DNA of 64,000 bases, taken from Octopus vulgaris. Taxonomy: Eukaryota. The stretch lies in the NCBI GenBank assembly GCA_951406725.2, contig OX597829.1, positions 56,358,001 through 56,422,000 of the forward strand, written 5' to 3'. Below are positions 7,970-62,700 of the stretch, piece after piece. Under the pieces are notes generated by a model. That model was not told where the DNA came from and did not search any database. It saw nothing but the letters and a program-made list of their open reading frames with translations. Made by a program: the position numbers and the translations under genes. Numbering within the stretch: position 1 is the stretch's first letter; each line of letters starts with the position of its first letter.

Positions 7970-8812
7970 GCGATGAGTAAATTGTTGCCATTTTAAAATC
8001 TTAATTTCGCACATGTGCATTGTTTGTTTTTGATTTTGCCGACTACACAATATAGTAGGGTCAGTTGGGCACCATTTGTGAGAAAAACTGCACCATGATG
8101 CAATTCACTCTGCCAGAAATTTGGAAATGACATACTGTACCGCTTCACATTCATGCCAGAAACTCCAGTACAAACATTTCAGAATGTTTGGGTGTCAATC
8201 TGAGGACAGTGAAGAGAATTCGGAAAGATTTGGATGAGTCTAATGGTAATTATGAATGTACAGCAGCCTGGAAAACTCACTCTGATCGTTCTGATAAAAA
8301 AAAAAGAACTCCTGAACTTGTTGGTGAGATCCAGGCCACGATTGACAACGACCCTTCAAAGTCAATCAGGTCCATCACCAGAGACATGGGAGTGTCTGAG
8401 TTTCTTATCAGGCAAGTACTGCATAAAGACATTCGGTATTCCTCATACAAGATAAGATAGGGCCAATTTTTATCCCAGGCCATCAAAGACAAGAGGAAAG
8501 ACTGTGCTACAAAGCTTTTCAACAAACTCAAGCATCCCCTCCAACCGAACATGCTTTGGTCATTCTCAGACGAGAAAAATTTCTGCCGGGATCAGATGGT
8601 GAACATAGAGAACAACCGTTGGTTTGCCTTGTCCCCAAAACATATACTGAGAGTGGTAAAAATCAAACATCCAGTCAACAACATGGTGTTTGGAGGAGGT
8701 AGTGCTGTCCTGGGTGGCTGCTGGCAACAGGACTCTGCACCATGCCACACAAGCAGGAGAACCCAGTCATGGCTGTCAGACAATTTCTGCAACCACATCT
8801 GGCCTCCTAACT
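7970..8812 (+). mobile_element. Tc1/mariner-type transposase remnant
   Basis: HTH-like GVNLRTVKRIRK and SIRSITRDMGVS; DDE/D fragments FSDEKNF, QQDSAPCH, WPPN; contains stops and deletions. Confidence 0.85.
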
Positions 8813-8894
8813 TCTTTTCTCTTTATGCAAACTTAAATTTAGTCTGGACACCTTCTGTGTATGTATGCGTGTGTGTGTGTGTGTGTGTGTGTGT

Positions 8895-9475
8895 TCTTCT
8901 ATTGTTTTATTTGTTTCAGTCATTTGACTGTGGCCATGCTAGCGCACCGCCTTAATGAGTTTTAGTCAAAGAAATCAACCTCAGGACTAATTTTTTTAAG
9001 CCTAGTACTTATTCTATCAGTCCCTTTTGCCAAACTGCTAAGTTACATGGACATAAAACTATGATGGGGTGACAAACACAGGCACAAACACACATCATCA
9101 TCATTGTTCGACCGTGGTCGAGACAATGGAATTTACCATGTTGCGCCAGACTTCACGGTCCATCATAGCATTACGGAGGTCCTGTTGCTGGATGCCTGTA
9201 TCCCTGGAGATTACATCAGGGTAGGAGAGTGTGCGCCCTCTGGTGTTGCGAGTAGATGGCTTCCAGAGGAGAAGAGTAGAAATTACTTCTTTTTCAGCTC
9301 TACAACAATGTCCAGCAAACTGGACTCTCCTACCTTTCACAAGAGATGACACAGGTGACACATATATATATATATATATATATAATGGGCTTCTTTCAGG
9401 TGCCATGCAGTGGGACTGAACCTGGAACCATGTGGTTGGGAAGCAAGCTTCTTACCACACATTCACACCTATGCC
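8895..9475 (-). mobile_element. tRNA-derived SINE containing an inserted RTE-type LINE 3' end (9094-9345)
   Basis: SINE halves flank RRVQFAGHCCR...RGRTLSY...MMDREVWR* plus a (tga)n tail. Confidence 0.8.
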
Positions 9476-9754
9476 TATATATATATATATAAAATCCCAA
9501 ACAAGTTGTCAGTGAAAACCATGCTTTGGGTGGTTTTTTTTTTTTTGTGGCAAAGAGGGGGAAACACCTATTCCAACAAATATTTATATTTTGAAATGCA
9601 TCCAACCAATAGAATGAGTGAAAAAGTTCTAGATTCTATGAACTTAGGCCTACATATATCTATTCCTATTATTACCACTTAAAAAATGAAAGAAAGGATT
9701 TAAATCAAAATATATTTATGAAAACAAAAATAAAAAAAAGAGAGAAAATATTAC

Positions 9755-10015
9755 CTGTTGATGAAATTCATCATAATTTATCAAAGGTCCCGAGAAGCAT
9801 AAAGGCAAATAAATGGTATAACAAAGCAGATCACAGAAATCAAAACCATTCCTACGATTTTCACCATCTTCATGGACATGTTTCTTTTTCCATTTTACAT
9901 AATCACAATATTCCAGGCAAAAACTTGTGTAACGAATGTTACATAAGGACATGATAATCATCAGGAAATAGTAATGAAGATCCAGCTCTGGTGTCCAAGG
10001 AAACAAAGTGGTTTG
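9755..10015 (-). CDS. HHAT: HHAT coding exon 5: QTTLFPW...CNIRYTSFCLEYC...DLLCYTIYLPLCFSGPLINYDEFHQQ
   Basis: 261 nt; acceptor catctttcag, donor gtaata; phase 0-0. MBOAT/HHAT motifs RYTSFCLE and YxPLxxxGP. The catalytic His exon was not found in the window, so HHAT vs HHAT-like is unresolved. Confidence 0.93.
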
Positions 10016-23387: not shown

Positions 23388-23498
23388 ACTGAAGCATTTG
23401 AATTCAACCAATTTCCCAATAAGAATGTGTCCAAGAAGAAAAGGAGTAATTTTTTCAAACCATTTGTTCCATAAATTCCATTCATTTTCTGATATGTC
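23388..23498 (-). CDS. HHAT: HHAT coding exon 3: DISENEWNLWNKWFEKITPFLLGHILIGKLVEFKCFS
   Basis: 111 nt; acceptor tttcttttag, donor gttagt; phase 0-0. Matches the HHAT motif DxxDxEWxxW...LLGH. Confidence 0.9.
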
Positions 23499-23629: not shown

Positions 23630-26020
23630 CGAGCCATGGACACACTTCCTTTGTCAGGTCTTTGAAGTCACAGCATATCTTCAGAGGTCTCGGACTTTAA
23701 TCATTGCCTCTGTGAGACTCAAAGTACGAAGGTCATGCTTGACCACCTCGTCCCATGTCTTCCTGGGTCTACCTCTACTCCGGATTCCTTCAACAGTTTG
23801 GGAGTGGCACTTCTTCACACATCTCTCCTCGTTCATCCTTAGTACATGACCATACCAATGCAATCGTCTCTCCTGCACATTGCATCCAATTTTTATGTCT
23901 AGCATTTCTCTCAGGGTGCTTACACTCTGTCGTGCATGGACGCTGACATTACACATCCAGCAGATCATGCTTGCTTCATTTCTTTCAAGCCTACACATGT
24001 CCTCCACAGTCACAGCCCATGTTTCACTGCCATGAAGCATGGCAGTTCACACACGTGTCATACAATCTACCTTTCACTCTGAGCGAGAGACCCTTTGTCG
24101 CCAGTAGGGGAAGAAGCTTCCTAAACTTTGCCCAGGCTATTTTTATTCTAGTGGTAACACTCTCTGAGCATCCGCCCCTGCTACTGACTTGGTCACCTAG
24201 GTAGCAGAAACTATCAACTCCCCAAGGAGTGTAATTGAATCTGTTTTTTGAGTATCAGTAATGTCTATTGTCCCTGTGCATCTGCCGCACACAAAAGCTA
24301 TCATCTCTCTCTCTCTCCCTCTTTTACTTGTTTCAGTCATTTGACTGCGGCCATGCTGAAGCACCGCCTTTAGTCGAGCAAATCGACCCCAGGACATATT
24401 CTTTGTAAGCCCAGTACTTATTCTATCGGTCTCTTTTGCCGAACCGCTAAGTGACGAGGACATAAACACACCAGCATCGGTTGTCAAGCAATGCTAGGGG
24501 AACAAACACAGACACACAAACACACACATACATATACATATATATACATATATACGACGGGCTTCTTTCAGTTTCCGTCTACCAAATCCACTCACAAGGC
24601 ATTGGTCAGCCCGGTGCTATAGCAGAAGACACTTGCCCAAGATGCCACGCAGTGGGACTGAACCCGGAACCATGTGGTTGGTTAGCAAGCTACTTATCAC
24701 ACAGCCACTCCTGCGCCTCTCAGTTAATTTTCCTTTGATATTGCTGCACCTCTTATGTGTCCATAGCTTACAATGGGTACATCTTATGGAGTTTCTACCT
24801 ACACCTTTTCTTCAGATCGAGCAGGGCCACCTACTTGAGGGGGTGTATGGTGAGTTTGCCTTCCTACTTACTAGAACTTTGGTCTTTGCTACATTGACTC
24901 TAAGGCCTTTTGATTCTAAACCTAGCTTCCACACCCAAAATTTCTTCTCTAGTTCCGTTAGCGATTCTGCTACGAGGGCTAGGTCATCAGCATAGAGGCG
25001 CTCCCAGGGACAACCTGTCTTAAATTCCTCTGTTATTGCCTGGAGGACTATGATGAATAGAAGGGGTTGAGGGCTGAGCCTTGGTGGACGCCAGCTTCTA
25101 CCTGGAATTCGTCACTGTACTCATTGCCTATCCTAACCTTACTAACAGCCTCTCTGTTAAGGGCCTGTACAGCCCTTATTAACCTTCGTCAATCTCCAGT
25201 TTCCGCATTGCCCATGAGATAAGGGATCGGGGGACCCAGTCAAAGGCTTACTTCAAGTCCACAAAAGCTAAGTATAGGGGTTTATCTTTGGCTAGGTATT
25301 TCTCCTGCAGTTGTCGAACCATGAATATAGCATCAGTGGTGCTTCTGCCAAGCAAAAAACCAAATTGCATCTCATCTAGTCTAACTCTCTCCCTAATTAG
25401 TTGGGCTATGAACCTCTCCGTGACATTCATTACCTGATCCAGCAGTTTGATACCCCTGTAGTTATTTCTATCTAGAGCATCACCTTTACCCTTGTAGCAG
25501 TTGACTATGGTGCTGCTACGCCAGTCACTGGGTATGACTCCATCATGAACTACTTTTACAATGCAGGTGACTAGGCTGTAGCCCACACCACCAGATGTTT
25601 TACGCATCTCAGCAGTGATTGCTGATGGGCCGGGGGTTTTTCTTGGCTTCATACCCTTAATTGCCTTAACTACTAGGGAGCTATCTATACGGATAGCTGG
25701 TCCTTCTACTGGGTCAACATTTGGCAGGCTCTCCTCCTCCCATTCATTTTCCACATTCAGCAGTCTTTCATAATGGCTTCTCCAAGCCTCTTTCTTTTCA
25801 GAAGCATTAAAAGCAAGTGCACCATCATCCATGCGGACACATTTCTCTCGTATGACATCACAATTTTCTCTCACACACTGTCTTGCAATCCAAAATACCT
25901 CAGTTCTTTGGTCCTCATGTCGCTGGACATTGGCAAACTTCTTTTCTGCTTCGCTCTTGGCTATGTATACCTGCCGCCCAGCCTCCCTTTTGGCTACCTG
26001 GTACAGTTCCCTGCTACCCC
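23630..26020 (-). mobile_element. RTE LINE (RT domain, decayed), interrupted by a SINE at ~24303-24716
   Basis: NYRGIKLL, QFGF...STTDAIF, AFVDL, LYADDL, MLHGSETW, WYGHV. Confidence 0.95.
24310..24716 (-). mobile_element. tRNA-derived SINE (main family), near full length
   Basis: Near-identical reverse complement of 46915-47320. Confidence 0.93.
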
Positions 26021-26049
26021 TGTTTCTTTAATCTAACGGCCTTGTCTAC

Positions 26050-26394
<345 letters not shown>

Positions 26395-26476
26395 GGTCTC
26401 AGGTTGAGTTGGGGTTAACCACAGTAAATAAGGTACTCAATACATAGCAGAGTAAATTAATTTATTATATAGAAGG

Positions 26477-26527
26477 AGCTTCTACAGGACTAGAACTGTT
26501 TCATTCAAAAGAAATCATCAGGAAGCT
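26477..26527 (-). ncRNA. Compact type I hammerhead ribozyme motif (family D)
   Basis: Minus strand: agcttc-CTGATGA-tttc-tttt-gaat-GAAACAG-ttctagtc-CTGTA-gaagct. Stem I is 6 bp, stem III is 4 bp, and the core is intact. Confidence 0.8.
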
Positions 26528-26902
26528 AGTAGACAAGAGTTGTTTTGGCATTTATACATTTAGGCAGGTTTAAATGGGTGGTGGTGGGGGACTTTTTTGG
26601 GGGTAGGCATGGCGCAAAACTATCATTATTAGGGGAGTGGTCAAAGGAATCGGTGGTAAAGTAGATAAAAGAATAAATAAAAGAATAAAAGAATAAATAG
26701 AAAAATAGAGTTTTAGGTAAGTAAGGAGACTCTCACTTGTACATCTACATATATATAAAATCCTTAAAAAAAATGTTTTAGCCCGAAGGCCGCGGCCATG
26801 CTGGGGCACCGCTGAATGAGCTACACTAGTTTGTGAATCCACCTCTCATACGTGGCACTTGATCAACAAGGGAGTTCGATATATATATATATATATATAT
26901 AG

Positions 26903-27115
26903 AGGCGCAATGGCCTAGTGGTTAGGGCAGCGGACTCGCGGTCGCAGGATCGCGGTTTCGATTCTCAGACCGGGCGTTGTGTGTGTTTATTGAGCGAAAA
27001 CACCTAAAAGCTCTACGAGGCTCCGGCAGGGGGTGGTGATCCCTGCTGTACTCTTTCACCACAATGGCGGTGCCCCAGCATGGCCACAGCTCAAGAGCTG
27101 AAACTGGAAAAACAA
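26903..27115 (+). mobile_element. Third tRNA-derived SINE family (tRNA-Arg-like head; decayed copy ~1205-1470)
   Basis: ggcgcaatggcctagtggttagggcagcggactcgcgg...ggtttcgattctc; shares the ggtgccccagcatggcc tail. Confidence 0.75.
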
Positions 27116-27129
27116 AAAACAAAAAACAA

Positions 27130-28056
27130 AATATATATATATACACCCACATATTCACATATATCTATATATATACATACATACACACATATACATACAC
27201 ATATATATATATATACATACATATACATATATATATACATATATATACACACATACCTATGTACATACACACAAATACACATATACATACATATATATAC
27301 ATATATGTATACACACTCGCACATATATATACATACACACATATACACATGCATATACATGCACACACATACACACACATTTTTATTTCCTTATTTTAAT
27401 TTTATTATTACTTTTGTTTATATCTTTATTTTTATCTTGACCTCGGTCAGCCGGTCTCAAGGGATGGTCTCTCTAAAGAGTCCATTTATCTATCTACTCA
27501 CTGCTACAAACGCAAACACTCACTCACGCCCACACACTCACACGTACACTCATACCCATACACACACGCACGTGTTATATTCATACATACATACATCTAC
27601 ATACATTCACGTATATTCACATACGTACACGTTCCTACTGATTTATATCTACACGCATACACATACATACCTCAATACACCCACAGAAGACTAGTCCATA
27701 CATATACACTAATAAATATATATACACATATACACATACACATACATACACATACATACATATATATATATATATACATATAAATATACATATACATATA
27801 CATACACATATACATTCATACATATATACACATACACACATATATATATATGCGTACACATACACACACACACACGCGCATCTATATATACACAAAAGTA
27901 CATACATGCATAAATGTATACATATGTTTATACATATACGTGCGGTTACCCATTATACAGACGGATACATACATATAAACATACACATATATACCTATTT
28001 ACACATATGTATATATACATACATACATACACACATAACTCTACATACCTACATAT

Positions 28057-28110
<54 letters not shown>
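27130..28110. repeat. Compound TA/CA low-complexity region
   Basis: Read directly; source of many spurious ORFs. Confidence 0.95.
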
Positions 28111-28967: not shown

Positions 28968-29786
28968 TACGTGGCCTGATCAATAAGTATCCGGACTTTT
29001 GCCATAGTAATGAAACTAAAGCACACAGAGTTAAGCCACTTGGCACAGATTGACCTTGAGTTCTGTTGTGCACGCACACTAAGTTTTAACGTTCTAGCTC
29101 ACTTCCCCTATTTACAGCAGTGCCTGGAAGGGAGGTGTGTAACATGTGATTGTCACATTGATAATAACAGAAAACTTGGCAATACCTGCTCAGAGGCCTA
29201 TGCAAAGTTTTCAATAAGTTTTCATTATTTTCGACACAATCAAGATCTTGTGCAACTGAAACCCATGTGTCTTTTTGGTCAGTTGAAAGCAGTTTTGGCA
29301 CAAACTTAGTAGACATATGTCTCATACCCAAATCTTCAGTGATAGTGGACTGAACTGAACCGTAACTAATCTGCACATCCTCTGATAACTCACAGATGGT
29401 GATTCTATGATTTCCTCTCACAGCTGCATGTACATCTGCAATGTTTTTCTCAGTTCTTCTGGTTGCAGGTCTCCCAAAACGTTCATCAATATTGACATTT
29501 CTTCAGCCATCTAAGAAACATTTGAACCCTTCATACACTTGTGTGCAACTCAAGCACTCCTCTCCATACACTTTCTGCAACTCTGCGTAGGCCTCTCAGT
29601 AAGTATCACCATAACAACTTCCTCTGTCATTACGATCACACACTACACACCTTCCTTCCAAGCACTGCTATAAACCGTGGAAGTGAGCTAGAGTTCAAGG
29701 TCAATCTGTATCAAGTGGCTTCACTCTGTACGCTTTAGCTTCATTACTATGGCAATAGCACAAATACTTATTAATTAGACTGCATA
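28968..29786. mobile_element. Mariner-derived fold-back element (both arms from the transposon 5' end)
   Basis: Long imperfect TIRs; minus-strand RITICELSEDVQISYGSVQSTITEDLGMRHMSTKFVPKLL (mariner HTH and WVPxxL-like linker). Confidence 0.85.
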
Positions 29787-38875: not shown

Positions 38876-38940
38876 CTTCTTTGTATTCAGCAGACTCCAA
38901 CCAGGATAAAAGTCTCTGGGATTTAACTTTTCATAATTCT
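38876..38940 (-). CDS. HHAT: HHAT coding exon 2: (E)NYEKLNPRDFYPGWSLLNTKK
   Basis: 65 nt; acceptor tttttctttcag, donor gttggt; phase 1 to 0. The GW...KK|D junction fits HHAT/Rasp proteins. Too short for the ORF track. Confidence 0.85.
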
Positions 38941-41900
38941 CTGAAAGAAAAATTACACCATTTTTATTGTCATAATTTTTACTTCATATTGATATTCTTT
39001 TCTATTCTAGGCACAAGGACCGAAATTTTAGGGGTGGATACCAGTTGATTAGATTGACTCCAGTACACAACTGGTACTTAATTTATCAACCCCAAAAGGA
39101 TGAAAGGCAAAGTTGACCTCAGAGAAATTTGATCTCAGAACGTAAAGACAGATGAAATACCTATTTCTTATCCACAAGGGGCTAAACATAGGGGGGACAA
39201 ACAAGGACAGACATAGGTATTAAGTCGATTACATCGACCCCAGTGCGTAACTGGTACTTAATTTATCGACCCCGAAAGGATGAAAGGTAAAGTCGACCTC
39301 GGCGGAATTTGAACTTACAACATAACGGCAGATGAAATACCGCTAAGCATTTCACCCGGTGTGCTAACATTTCTGCCATTGAAAGCGTATATTCTTTTCA
39401 GAGTAATCTGTATGATAATATCGAAGACAAGAATGGTAATACAAAAGACAAAAATCTATGGTTCAATTCTCATGATCTTTCAAGGTCAAACTAACCAACA
39501 TATTTAATATTTATTGATGTAAACACTTTTCCATATAGTAAGAACTCTTAGACTTTTTTTTTAGAAATCTATACTGAATAGATATGTTGTCATTAACAAT
39601 GGGACACATCAATATATTAGAAATGGGATATCTCAATGGATATCAAAGTATTAAGAACAGGAGCTTTCAACAGATACCAAAATATAGCATATTTGACCCA
39701 ATGATGATAAAAAATGGGAACTTTCAACAAAACAAATATTATTTACACATTATAAGTGCAGTTCTTCATTAGAGTTGGAAAATACTGGAGGCCATTATCT
39801 AAAGAATGTGAAGAAGCAGAAACAGTTTCATCATCATCATTTAACATTCTGTTGTACATGCTGGCATGGGTTGGACAGTTTGACCAGGGCTAGCTAATAA
39901 GCTGAGGGACTGCACCAGACTCCAGTCTGATGTGGTATGGTTTCTATGGCTGGATTCCCTTGCTAATGCCAATTATTTCAAGAGTGTAATGGGTGATTTT
40001 ACATGTCACTGGCATCTTTGCCAGCTGCATGACACCAATATCTGCCACAACTACGATTCCATTCAGCTTGATGGATCTTCCTTCTCAAGAACAGCATAAT
40101 GCCAAATGTCTCAGCCATTTGTCATTGTCTCCATTGAGGCCCAATGCTGAAGAGGTGTTTTTTATGTGCTACAGGCACAGGTGCTAGTTATGCGACAATG
40201 GCATCAGCCACAAAACTCTAGTGGAGACAAAATCACTTGAGATTTAGCAACAAAGTCACAGAAACAGAAATCCAGGAATTCACAGAATGCATTGAATGAA
40301 AGACTATTTCAATTATTAAAACTTTCAAAAATTATTTTAGAATTAAGAACAGTAAATAAACAACAGATCCAGTACGCTTAAAGCAAAACAATGCACAAAT
40401 ATACTTAGAGTAATTACAGGTACAACATAAACCCTAATACATGGAAACAAGTGTGACATTATTCCCCTCATTAGCTCAAAACACTGTGATATGATGTACA
40501 CAGCCGACAATAGGGGCAAAGGAACAACTCACATTGACTGAGTCCACTTTGTGCCCTGAGCTGTGTCCACATTACAGGCATACAGAAACAGTGGTCAGTG
40601 TACAGCATGGTCTTCATTTCATGACCAGAGGAGGTATGGTACAACTGGGGAAACAGATCTCACACAAAAATCCTAAACAACCTCCAAAAGAGATCTGTTC
40701 AGTTGCAAGCTAATACTCACCAACACACTACAACATAACTGACTTAAAGATTTACTATTTATTCTCCCCCCCCCTCTTCTACTTTATTACGGCAGCTTAT
40801 GTCACTCTTCACTTTCACCCAAAGCACCCGTTTCATCTTACTCTTCCTCCACTCAGCCTACAAATTGTATTTCACTCTTTAAATGCTACACTGAACACTT
40901 TGCCTAACCCTTCATCTTTGAACCGGAACTCTCTGGATATTGCTCTTTTTGCAACTTTCCCCCACAGGCTATGGAGCATCAATTGCACTGACCTCATCAG
41001 AATAGGAGTACCATAAAGATAATCAGCTTTGCATTCATGTACTCAAGTTGTTGCACTGTATCACATGTAAAACTGTTGGTTAATATTGTAGCCAAGACTA
41101 CTGAACCTAACAAGTCAACATAGCCAACTGGAAAGATTGAATTCAACTAAATGTCAAGTTTCAACTTCTGGATCACACACAAACGTTCAATCAATAAATC
41201 TCATCAATAGATCTTTAGAGTAGATATGTTTGGATTAACTCAACAACTTCAAGATAAGTAAAACATAGTTTTTAATACATTTAGGAGCAAATATACTAAA
41301 GGGAAAACAAGCAGAAATAAAATGTGATGCTTTAACCGAAAGAGCTTACAAACTAAGGAAGTATATTTGAAGCCATTGGAAGTATCTCTAAATGGTTGCT
41401 TGAACTGCTAGAAATAGCTGGTACATCTCCCTCAAATCACATCCTACCATTTCAAGTAAGATCTATTGGTTAGTGTAGTCCTTGGTGTACAAAAAGGTGA
41501 AATTACCAAAGCTGGAACACTTCTGATCATAGTTCTGCTCAAGTGGGGATGAACTGATGTGTTTCAAACTTAGTCACTGAGAGATTTCTTTTACATCAAG
41601 CAACAGACATTGCCCTGTCTATCTTCCTCATTATCAATAAGAATACAATGAACCAGTGATCAAGTGGAAGCCTCCAACCAATGATAATGTTTACTTCATA
41701 TTGTAATTTGTGATATAAAATAAATAAATGAACAATGAAGAGTATTTTGACAGACCAGACTATTTGTTGAAGAAATGTTACTTTCAACAACTAATATGCA
41801 CCAGTTCACATTTCTTTTATTTATATTTTCCATCCAATTCATGTCAGAGAACACTAACAATCACTAACCTTCCAGCTTTTGAGAATATCTTTAATAAGCT

Positions 41901-59743: not shown

Positions 59744-62700
59744 TTAAGAACCCTTCATATGGTCAGAAATTTAGGGACCTCCTAATTAAGAAATTTGATG
59801 AAAGGGAGGAAGAGCTACAGACTTGTGACATAGAAGGCAACTGGGAATTCCTGAGGGACAGCTTGCTGAGTGCCACAGACCAAATCTGTGGCTGATGTGG
59901 TGGTGGAATGATGTGACAGACAGGGCCAATAGAGCTAAAAAAGCAGGCCTGAAAGAATGGGGGTAGCAAGGAACTGTTATCAGATTGCCAGAAGGGATGC
60001 TAGGAGACAAGTATCTCTAGCTAAGGAAGAAGCAGAAAAGAAGTTTGCCTAAGTTCAGCAAAGAGAGGACCAAAGAACAGAAGTATTTTGGATTGCAAGA
60101 CAGTATGCGAGAGAAAATTGTGGTGTCAGTGTGTCCGTATGGATGAAGGTGCACTTGCATTTAATAATAAGAAAGAGGCTTGGAGTTGCCATTATGAAAG
60201 ACTGCTGAATGTGAAGAATTAATGGGAGGAGGAGAGTCTTCCAAAGGGTGACCCAATTGAGGAACTGGATACCTGAATCAACTGTTCCATGGCAGATAAA
60301 GCTATTAAGGATATGAAGACTGGGAAAGACCCCGGCCCATCAGGAACCACTGCTGAGATGCTTAAAATATCTGGTGGTGTGGGTTATAGGCTAGTCACCC
60401 ATATAGTTAACCAGGTGGTACACAAAGGAGTCATGCTCAATGACTGGTGTAGCAGCACCATAGTTAACTGTTACAAAGGTAAAGGTGATGCCTTGGATAG
60501 AACTAGTTACAGAGGTATCAAATTGTTGGAACAGGTGATGAAAGTTACAGAGAAAGTCATAGACCAACTAATTAGGGAGAGAGTTAGCCTAGATGAGATG
60601 CAGTTTGATTTTGTGCCAGGATGAAGCATCATTGATGCTATATTTCTGGTAAGGCAGTTGCAGGAGAAATACATAGCCAAAGATAAACCTCTGTATTTGG
60701 CCTTTGTTGACTTGGAGAAAGCCTTTGACAGCATCCCTCAATCCCTTATCTGGTTGTCAATGTGGAAACTAGGGATAGATGAGTGGTTGGTAAGAGTTGT
60801 AGAAGCTATGTACAGGGATGCTACAAGTAAGATGAGGGTTGGTAATGAGTACAGTGAAGAATTCAGGGTACATGAAGGGGTTCACCAAGGATCGATGCTC
60901 AGCTCCCTTTTGTTCATCATAGTCCTCCAAACAATAACAGAGCTGCCCATGGGTATTCAAGACAGGCTGCCCCTGGGAGCTCCTCTATGCTGATGACCTT
61001 GCTCTTATAACTGAATCACAACCTGAACTAGAGAAGAAGTTCCAGGTATGGAAGCAAGGTCTAGAATCGAAGGGCCTTAGAGTTAACCTAGCAAAAATCA
61101 AAGTCTTAGAAAGTAGGAAGGCTGTCAAATCACAAATCCCTTCAGGCAGATGGCCCTGCTCGATCTGTAGAAAAGGTGTACATAGAAACTCTGTAAGATG
61201 CACCCAGTGTAAGCTTTGAATGCATAAAAGGTGCAGTAATATCAGAGGAACATTAACAGGGAAACTAGCTTTTGTATGTGGAAGATGCACAAGTACAATA
61301 AATGCTGAAAATGTGCAGAAAATAGACTCCATCAACTGCCAGAGAGTTAAGCTAGAGATAGCAGATAGCTTCCATTGTCTAGCTGACCAAGTTAGTAGCA
61401 GAGGTAGATGCCCGAGAGCACAGCTGTTAGAATAAGATTAGGCTGGGCAAAGTTCAGAGGGCTCCTACCCCTGCTGGCAACAAAGCCCTCTCCCTCAGAG
61501 TGAAAGGCAGATTGTATGATACCTTTGTGCAAACAGCTATGCTGCCTGGCAGTAAAACATGGGCTGTGACAGCCGAGGACATGCGTAAGCTTGAAAGAAA
61601 TGAAGTCAGTGTGCTGCGCTGAATGTGCAATGTCAGTGTGCATGTTCGACAGAGTGTAAGCATATTGAGAGAAAAGTCAGGTATAAGAAGTATCAGATGT
61701 GGTGTGCAACAGAGACAACTGTACTGGTATGGTGATGGGATGCATATGGATGTGGACAGCTGTGTAAAGAAGTGCCAATCTCTAAATGTGGAGGGAACCT
61801 GTGATAGAGGTTGACCCAGGAAGACATGGGGCGAGGTAGTGAATCATGATCTTCAAACTTTGAGCTTCACAGAGGCAATGACTGGTGACCGAGACCTTTA
61901 GAAATGTGCTGTGCTTGAGAGGATCCAGCAAGCCAAGTGAAATCATAGTTGTGGTAATTGGCACCCATGCTGGTGGCACGTAAAGAAAACCTTTCGAGTG
62001 CAGGGCCTCAAGGAGGCAAAGTGGCTGAGTTCCTTTCGAGCATTGAGCCTCATTGAGGCAAGTGGCTGAGTTCCTTTTGAGCGTTGGGCCTCATGGAGCA
62101 ATGACCAAGACCTTTAGCATTATGTCCCATTAAGACCCATTAAGCTGAGCAAAATCACAGTCATGGTAGATAATGGTGTCATGCAAAAAGCACCCCAGTA
62201 TCATGCAAATGGCACTTGTGCTGGTGGCGCATAAAAACACCCATTACATTCTTGGAGTGGCTAGAATTAGGAAGGGCATCCAGCCGTAGAAAACTATGCC
62301 AAATCAGACTGGAGTCTGGTGCAGCCTTCCAGCATTGCAACCCGGTCAAACTGTCCAACTCATACCAGCATGGACAATGGACATTAAATGATGATGATGA
62401 TGATGAGAGCATGGCTATTTTCCTGATGGTAGAAGGGTCCTGTCATTTTTCTAACTTTAGACGTTACTAAATTCCTTTTGAGGTTTCCTAGTTCCAGGTT
62501 TTGTTTCCATATCTGGTATCTATTCCCTAATCCTGATACAAATTCAGCTATGAGCGTTAAGTCATTAGCATAAAGAAGATCCTACAGGCAGCCAGTCTTA
62601 AACTTCTCTGCAATGACTTGAAAAATTATAAAAAACAGAAGGCAACTGAAGATTGAACCCTGATGCATGCCTCCTTTTATGCAGAATTTATCACAATTAT

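Follow-up and report, generated by a model that had tools for sequence, protein, structure and literature searches.

A type I hammerhead in an HHAT intron of Octopus vulgaris lies in a young Hydra-clade Penelope-like element, whose RNA it probably starts and only rarely cuts

Hammerhead ribozymes in the pseudo-LTRs (pLTRs) of Penelope-like elements, those of the Hydra clade included, are already known (Craig et al., 2021, PMC8557442; Cervera and de la Pena, PMC4209133), and their role in these elements has been described as unclear (Craig et al., 2021, PMC8557442). The Hydra clade is defined by an RWK-type motif, DKT, a CxCX5C linker, CxxC and CxH motifs, a C-terminal endonuclease (EN) and a (TA)n target (PMC8557442). 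The one element to have been studied biochemically comes from the anole, and no cut ends were found for it in vivo (Frangieh et al., 2024, PMC11167929). In Penelope of D. virilis, transcription starts within the pLTR, upstream of the ORF, which leaves the hammerhead in the 5' UTR; the promoter is internal and TATA-less, and a 75-bp intron precedes the hammerhead (Schostak et al., 2008, PMC2377424). Finally, minimal hammerheads have been described for which little activity is expected as monomers; in axolotl HHR_Amex2, helix II starts with a U.U, and the monomer reaches 22% cleavage in an hour (Cervera and de la Pena, PMC4209133, PMC7229834; Li et al., 2026, bioRxiv 10.64898/2026.07.22.740005).

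We analysed a 64,000-nt stretch of Octopus vulgaris DNA (hereafter the window), in which a type I hammerhead lies on the minus strand at 26477..26527, within a gene. The exon at 9752-9886 leads to an MBOAT protein of Octopus vulgaris (P0121), whose cluster members are named HHAT. Coding exons mapped from P0121 lie on the minus strand at 45153-45001, 38876..38941 (exon 2, aa 52-73), 23388..23498 (exon 3, aa 74-110), 13532-13338 and 10015-9755; the short HHAT exons gave no recognised match in Pfam and PDB sequence searches. Coding exons 2 and 3 flank the motif on the same strand, and the earlier note was thus right in placing it, in the sense orientation, in HHAT intron 2.

The anatomy of the motif is also as that note described it, with a hammerhead core, a 6-bp stem I (AGCUUC/GAAGCU, minus strand 26527-26477) and a 4-bp stem III. 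CUGAUGA is followed by stem II (a U.U and 3 bp, closed by a UUUU loop), GAAA (G12 at 26502, minus strand), stem III, whose 8-nt loop includes the palindrome CUAG, and finally GUA. The type I elements CUGANGA, GAAA and UH are found in order among three helices, with stem I open. The scissile bond is predicted at 26482..26483 (minus strand), between A17 at 26483 and a G at 26482 at which few genomic arms start. A strict descriptor matches once in the 64-kb window and never in 300 shuffled windows, while the core words by themselves hardly exceed chance (16 matches in the window, a number reached in 4 of 100 shuffles). The Rfam hammerhead models have no match in the window at gathering score, the motif being a short variant with a U.U at the base of stem II, and the z-score of the 51-mer is 0.04. 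The descriptor scan yielded no second canonical hammerhead in the window, and one weak extra candidate with a core mismatch. No other canonical motif was hence found there with which the stem III, said to be longer, could be compared, and 4-5 bp is the usual length among relatives; the unusual part of the motif is its long palindromic loop III, not the length of stem III. Likewise, the weak layout of stem II was correctly described, but it does not amount to decay: 15 of 28 relative clusters also have a U.U at its base, and the published table of Hydra hammerheads shows it too (PMC8557442). Judged by its sequence, the motif is not degenerate.

The motif is part of a retrotransposon with thousands of copies and is not specific to HHAT. 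Its exact 43-mer has 1,328 matches genome-wide and the relaxed core 7,173, with none for reversed-pattern controls. A 221-nt query returned 1,247 genome candidates, and nearly all of the 40 that were scored are 99-100% identical to it; over these 221 nt, the window copy is 100% identical to three other loci. Comparison of flanks showed that the shared unit stops just before a (TA)n microsatellite, the insertion target, which in the window occupies 26051..26391, and that a T-rich stretch and a long microsatellite-like region precede it; longer genomic copies have an ORF upstream. In the window, the 3' pLTR lies on the minus strand at 26392..26757 and is 97-99% identical to many genomic copies. 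It includes a "tail" of about 70 nt (26392..26460, minus strand), located between two putative reverse-transcription start sites, and the element ends at 26392. One or more unrelated short repeats (26758..27130) are inserted into the element at a TA run, followed by a remnant of the microsatellite-like 3' UTR (27131..28075, minus strand). The window copy, about 28075-26392, is 5'-truncated near 28075 and has lost its ORF, and no second copy is present within 20 kb on either side. Its tail carries three private substitutions at 26392-26415, two of them at CpG, that distinguish it from 100 of 100 anchored copies, a set biased to the common tail form by the anchor pattern; these could serve as copy-specific tags.

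The full unit, as seen in L084 and also in L083 and L086, consists of pLTR(HH)-tail-713-aa ORF-2.2-kb low-complexity 3' UTR-pLTR(HH)-tail, and its ORF is intact or near-intact in these three tandem units. The tandem period with the ORF is about 4.8 kb in L084, where the 713-aa RT/GIY-YIG frame lies between direct pLTRs and displays RWR38, DKT116, YRDD, C567xCX5C, SYIG, CDLC667 (CxxC) and CMH695 (CxH). Although Pfam and PDB sequence searches with the element ORF itself gave no recognised match, 1,117 of 7,992 scored candidates are homologues, the best listed being 37-52% identical, and these carry PF01541/PF00078. Penelope-like traits are present as well, namely 5' truncation, an inverted partial pLTR and the tail, and TA repeats follow the tail in nearly all of 100 copies. 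From its ORF motifs and its target, and with published sequences compared by eye, the element almost certainly belongs to the Hydra clade of Penelope-like elements. Neptune or Naiad, a first guess, was dropped once the Hydra motifs were found, and a non-LTR retrozyme was ruled out, as short (170-400 nt) head-to-tail units are missing and short copies are inverted.

Two further features of the unit deserve mention. Its 3' UTR (L084:3414-5630; 27131-28075 in the window) is 2.2 kb long, with 27% GC and 84% alternating purine/pyrimidine steps, so that the element spreads TA/TG-rich DNA resembling its own target. In addition, L082, L086, L087 and L090 have in common a frameshift at a C-run after WYNPP, resulting in frames of 506-524 aa; this is either a subfamily lesion or a homopolymer assembly error.

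In many respects the element resembles the Hydra elements described by Craig et al. (2021, PMC8557442). It has in common with them the C-terminal GIY-YIG, RWx, DKT, CxCX5C, CxxC/CxH and (TA)n, a canonical type I hammerhead near the 3' end, with a U.U in many members, and tandem or inverted insertions with a tail. It differs by eye, both in protein and in hammerhead, from Hydra-1_Obim, the one octopus Hydra family that is listed in that paper. Its unit of about 4.8 kb, with a 2.2-kb 3' UTR of alternating purines and pyrimidines, exceeds the published ones (<3 kb), its tail is about 70 nt rather than 30-40, loop III has 8 nt and is palindromic instead of having 1-3 nt, and RWR replaces RWK (PMC8557442). 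Poseidon PAc of Anolis belongs to a different clade and has an ORF that starts inside the hammerhead (Frangieh et al., 2024, PMC11167929), whereas the octopus ORF begins 183 nt after the putative RNA start. With the minimal or dimeric hammerheads of Penelope-like elements and of retrozymes, the octopus motif has in common a type I fold and a palindromic loop III suited to dimers, and low monomer activity is expected (Cervera and de la Pena, PMC4209133, PMC7229834; Li et al., 2026, bioRxiv 10.64898/2026.07.22.740005). Unlike in retrozymes, it lies in an autonomous element, outside short tandem repeats, and its dispersed copies are mostly short fold-back insertions; it is not known to make circles. 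As to D. virilis Penelope, the likeness lies in a start within the pLTR upstream of the ORF and a hammerhead in the 5' UTR (Schostak et al., 2008, PMC2377424), while the octopus element differs by its TATA box and its probable start at the first base of stem I, and no spliced copy of it was found. Searches of the openly accessible literature yielded nothing on this octopus family, on a cap-like G or on a start at stem I, and no cut-site footprints in Penelope insertions were found in it. The octopus Hydra family, the stem-I start layout, the cap-like G and the cut-site insertion footprints are thus likely to be new.

Hammerheads accompany related ORFs elsewhere: by the same descriptor, 55 of 77 metagenome loci with such ORFs have one, in which the fold is kept although the stems are unrelated to those of the window motif. 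In seven of these relatives (L262, L290, L295, L301, L307, L310 and L311), a polypyrimidine tract and CAG, and no TATA, precede stem I, which suggests, by analogy with D. virilis Penelope, an intron ending at the hammerhead. A second, very young octopus family of the Hydra clade (L330-L341) has many intact 727-codon frames and its own hammerhead, with a TA-rich box before it. Within the family of the window copy, differences in the motif common to at least 10 of 162 arms, taken from unbiased copies, fall only on N7 and loop II, plus one deletion; a loop III variant marks another subfamily. No compensatory base pairs were seen within the family, the shared changes being on N7 and loops. Such a pattern is compatible with selection on the fold of source elements, although the number of independent events behind it is small. 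The two Gs just 3' of the cut site are deleted in 9 of 154 and 18 of 155 arms, mostly in fold-back arms, and the direct arms with these deletions (3 of 86) are all fold-backs; they may be assembly errors and are not used as evidence.

Where the copies begin is more informative about the RNA. In the numbering used here, C3 is +1, stem I starts at -5 and the cut falls between +39 and +40. A tail anchor has 3,519 matches, from which the first 100 consecutive copies, on one chromosome and with one anchor pattern, were sampled. Direct arms start exactly at -5 in 27 of these 100 and at -5..+8 in 53, but at +38..+42 in none, and 28 retain the region upstream of -34. Position -5 corresponds to the first base of stem I, at 26527 on the minus strand, which we infer to be the transcription start; copies beginning there often have an extra G. 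A TATAAAT box (26550..26556, minus strand) is located 29 nt upstream. Among distant relatives, 7 of 28 clusters have a TATA-like word at -42..-35, compared to 0.62 in shuffles (maximum 4 in 2,000 shuffles); this interval was picked after inspection of the data, and the other 21 clusters have no such word there. An inverted arm is present in 66 of the 100 copies. In 61 of the 66 it starts at +56..+70, near 26460, which would represent a second reverse-transcription start, as shown for the anole element (PMC11167929), and in 50 it ends at -6..+8. About half of the sampled insertions are palindromes of around 200 bp with arms of around 65 bp, in (TA)n (e.g., L097/L098 and L112/L113), and an identical perfect fold-back junction recurs at 657 loci genome-wide. 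Thousands of palindromic insertions amount to as many ready-made dsRNA hairpins.

The extra G at -6 occurs in 971 genome matches and is native in no subfamily seen. Among 59 arms with an intact start, 21 have the native continuation, 16 are perfect fold-backs and 3 show an AG overlap; the remaining arms, which belong to none of these classes, have the G in 16 of 19 cases. In about half of the cases, the opposite arm could have provided the G via microhomology. At 10 of 30 inspected G loci, it is not derivable from the opposite arm; at one of these the G directly abuts (TA)n, and in two insertions it is present on both arms. Reverse transcriptases are known, from work on LINE-1, to copy the cap as an extra G. 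Whether or not there is a start site, joining at the start of stem I is favoured by the palindrome AGCT. Overall, the element RNA probably starts at the first base of stem I, and the simplest reading, which seems likely, is that of a capped RNA beginning at this base and copied uncut to its end.

Traces of cleavage are much rarer. A base other than A precedes the +40 G in 96 genome matches, 86 of which were classified: about 35 are point changes in which the hammerhead is kept, and 51 are arms that start at +40, the cleavage-site G. Twenty of the 51 are joined via the 6-nt stem I microhomology GAAGCT and require no cleavage, while 31 are joined without it. For 17 of the 51 (14 insertions, one doubtful; L434, L448, L440 and L447 were classified by eye, and L434 and L448 excluded from this count), the partner arm stops at +38..+42 as well, compared to 1 of 66 in the unbiased sample; in 13 insertions, the cleavage site bounds the two arms, which are mostly separated by AT-rich filler. 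Two cDNAs that stop at the same bond point to a template with a cleavage product as its 5' end, and we therefore regard some cleavage in vivo as fairly likely from these junctions. Octopus genomic arms would in this way mark both the start and the cut site, whereas no reads at the cut site were found for PAc (PMC11167929). Arms at the cleavage site make up about 0.6% of some 8,100 intact-site arms, which is a lower bound, and cleavage is likely to be rare in the RNAs that get integrated; this low share agrees with the in vitro preference of the anole element for unprocessed RNA, its main substrate (PMC11167929).

These pile-ups might have arisen differently, if the motif were dead or nearly so in vivo and the ends resulted from palindromes and microhomology (AGCT, GAAGCT) together with pausing of the reverse transcriptase at structure. 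The 657 perfect fold-backs are indeed centred on AGCT, GAAGCT accounts for the 20 microhomology arms at the cleavage site, and the weak stem II, the low z-score and the missing cleavage-site reads of the anole element (PMC11167929) would all suit an inert motif. However, microhomology cannot explain an extra G on (TA)n or on both arms, nor do the 13 insertions with both arms ending at the cleavage site, mostly around AT-rich filler, fit with it; moreover, the TATA spacing recurs in distant families and variation spares the core and stems. A dead motif is thus unlikely.

Predicted folding, based on nearest-neighbour estimates that ignore tertiary contacts, is compatible with a poorly active monomer. 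In the isolated 51-mer, the active monomer is 0.3 kcal/mol above the MFE (P 4e-2). In an RNA running from 26527 through the tail, its probability is 5e-3, because a predicted competing hairpin (26469..26485, minus strand) ties up both the cleavage site and the 3' strand of stem I. The intron context lowers it to about 1e-4, as loop III is engaged by a CUAG from upstream and the 3' strand of stem I by the hairpin downstream. During transcription, P(active) is 2-4% until about 9 nt past stem I are out. Two copies, in contrast, co-fold into a double hammerhead as their MFE structure, at -25.2 versus 2 x -7.3 kcal/mol. The suggestion that the motif folds as a monomer thus holds for about 4% of the isolated 51-mer, but not for the intron, and the active MFE is that of the dimer.

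The cleavage site itself may also be edited. In contigs of three of four runs, the cleavage-site A (26483) reads G, with 359 of 1117, 79 of 3012 and 55 of 522 by summed depth, while the fourth run has 0 of 80910; these are contigs whose RNA status was guessed, and the positions are family-wide. Neither joints nor piled-up ends were reported for these runs, which speaks neither for nor against a start or a cut. The A of loop III at 26491 likewise reads G, both As being in a UAG context. In the genome, only 8 of 8,113 matches have G at the cleavage site, and substitutions at this base neither favour G nor exceed the background; they are not used as evidence. Loose ends in one run also display, by eye, clustered A>G changes. 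The pattern, which is a lead only, suggests ADAR editing of fold-back transcripts.

Our preferred reading, which we consider probable, is that the motif is the hammerhead of a young Hydra-clade element inserted in the (TA)n of HHAT intron 2, and that it starts the element RNA, rarely cuts it and is a passenger in the gene. According to this model, the TATA promoter in the pLTR would start a capped RNA at 26527, with the hammerhead first. From the 5' pLTR, this RNA would be the ORF mRNA, with a 183-nt leader; from the 3' pLTR, it would be a short RNA running into the flank, which would explain the mass of 200-bp fold-back insertions. The element protein would nick (TA)n and, beginning at two internal sites, copy capped RNA that is mostly uncleaved; copying would run off at the cap, leaving the extra G, and joining of two cDNAs would produce the short fold-backs. 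The competing hairpin would leave most RNA uncut, and occasional cleavage 44 nt after the cap, probably aided by dimerisation through loop III or by the element protein, would strip the cap and these 44 nt, giving an uncapped ORF RNA and the rare copies that start at the cut site. In a tandem read-through RNA, cleavage would free a unit-length RNA. It might serve either RNA turnover or translation. Of possible relevance here, cleavage-dependent, cap-independent translation has been reported for viral hammerheads located in 5' UTRs (PMC13725137).

More tentatively, and with slightly less than even odds in our estimation, the Hydra hammerhead could be a 5'-terminal switch: a TATA-driven start at stem I would give an uncut capped RNA that is the template, slow cleavage would decap it 44 nt in, possibly licensing translation, ADAR would edit the cleavage-site A in fold-back transcripts, and insertion junctions would record both cap and cut. 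If true, this would be the first trace of a Penelope hammerhead at work in vivo. With base-precise footprints, an intact ORF and thousands of fold-backs, the role and timing of a Penelope hammerhead become directly testable.

For HHAT, the motif is of little importance, as it is one of thousands of young transposon copies, and we consider it very probable that it has no meaningful effect on the gene. In the pre-mRNA the active monomer is predicted to be rare, folding favours the dimer, and a partner is missing within 20 kb, which makes such an effect unlikely. The earlier note had proposed that it could cut the nascent HHAT intron and affect splicing or transcript level, and the results give this no support. 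A co-opted or accidental intronic ribozyme of this kind would draw on the intact core, the sense orientation, a monomer fold briefly accessible in transcription and a family that bears signs of some cleavage; but the insertion is very young and multicopy, being identical over 221 nt to three loci, the equilibrium probability of the active fold in context is extremely low, and the cleavage footprint is found on <1% of family arms. In addition, an intron cut by a slow hammerhead has been reported to splice normally (PMC2995048). We regard this alternative as very improbable. The window copy retains its TATA box, and a weak intronic sense promoter is thus possible, as a more plausible local effect than cleavage. 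Least probable of all is that the stem I boundary is a 3' splice site (YAG before CUUC), with truncated copies stopping at a splicing intermediate, since, despite a pyrimidine-rich stretch ending in YAG before the helix in all subfamilies, a donor-like GTGAG about 220 nt upstream, a polypyrimidine-CAG right before stem I in some relatives and a D. virilis Penelope intron that ends at helix I (PMC4209133), copies retain the AG, start at its A and have the extra G before it, and the one spliced junction tested has 0 genomic matches.

The element is not the only repeat in this part of the gene. Directly downstream of the (TA)n, in the same intron, lies a decayed copy of a LINE-type RT (23640-26040 in the window; RVT_1 fragment, E 0.0012), and related fragments are found at about 11000, 18800, 30800 and 60300-61800. 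The window also contains broken frames at 8131-8955, with a weak HTH_23 match, and at 29086-29502, which we take to resemble Tc1/mariner transposases.
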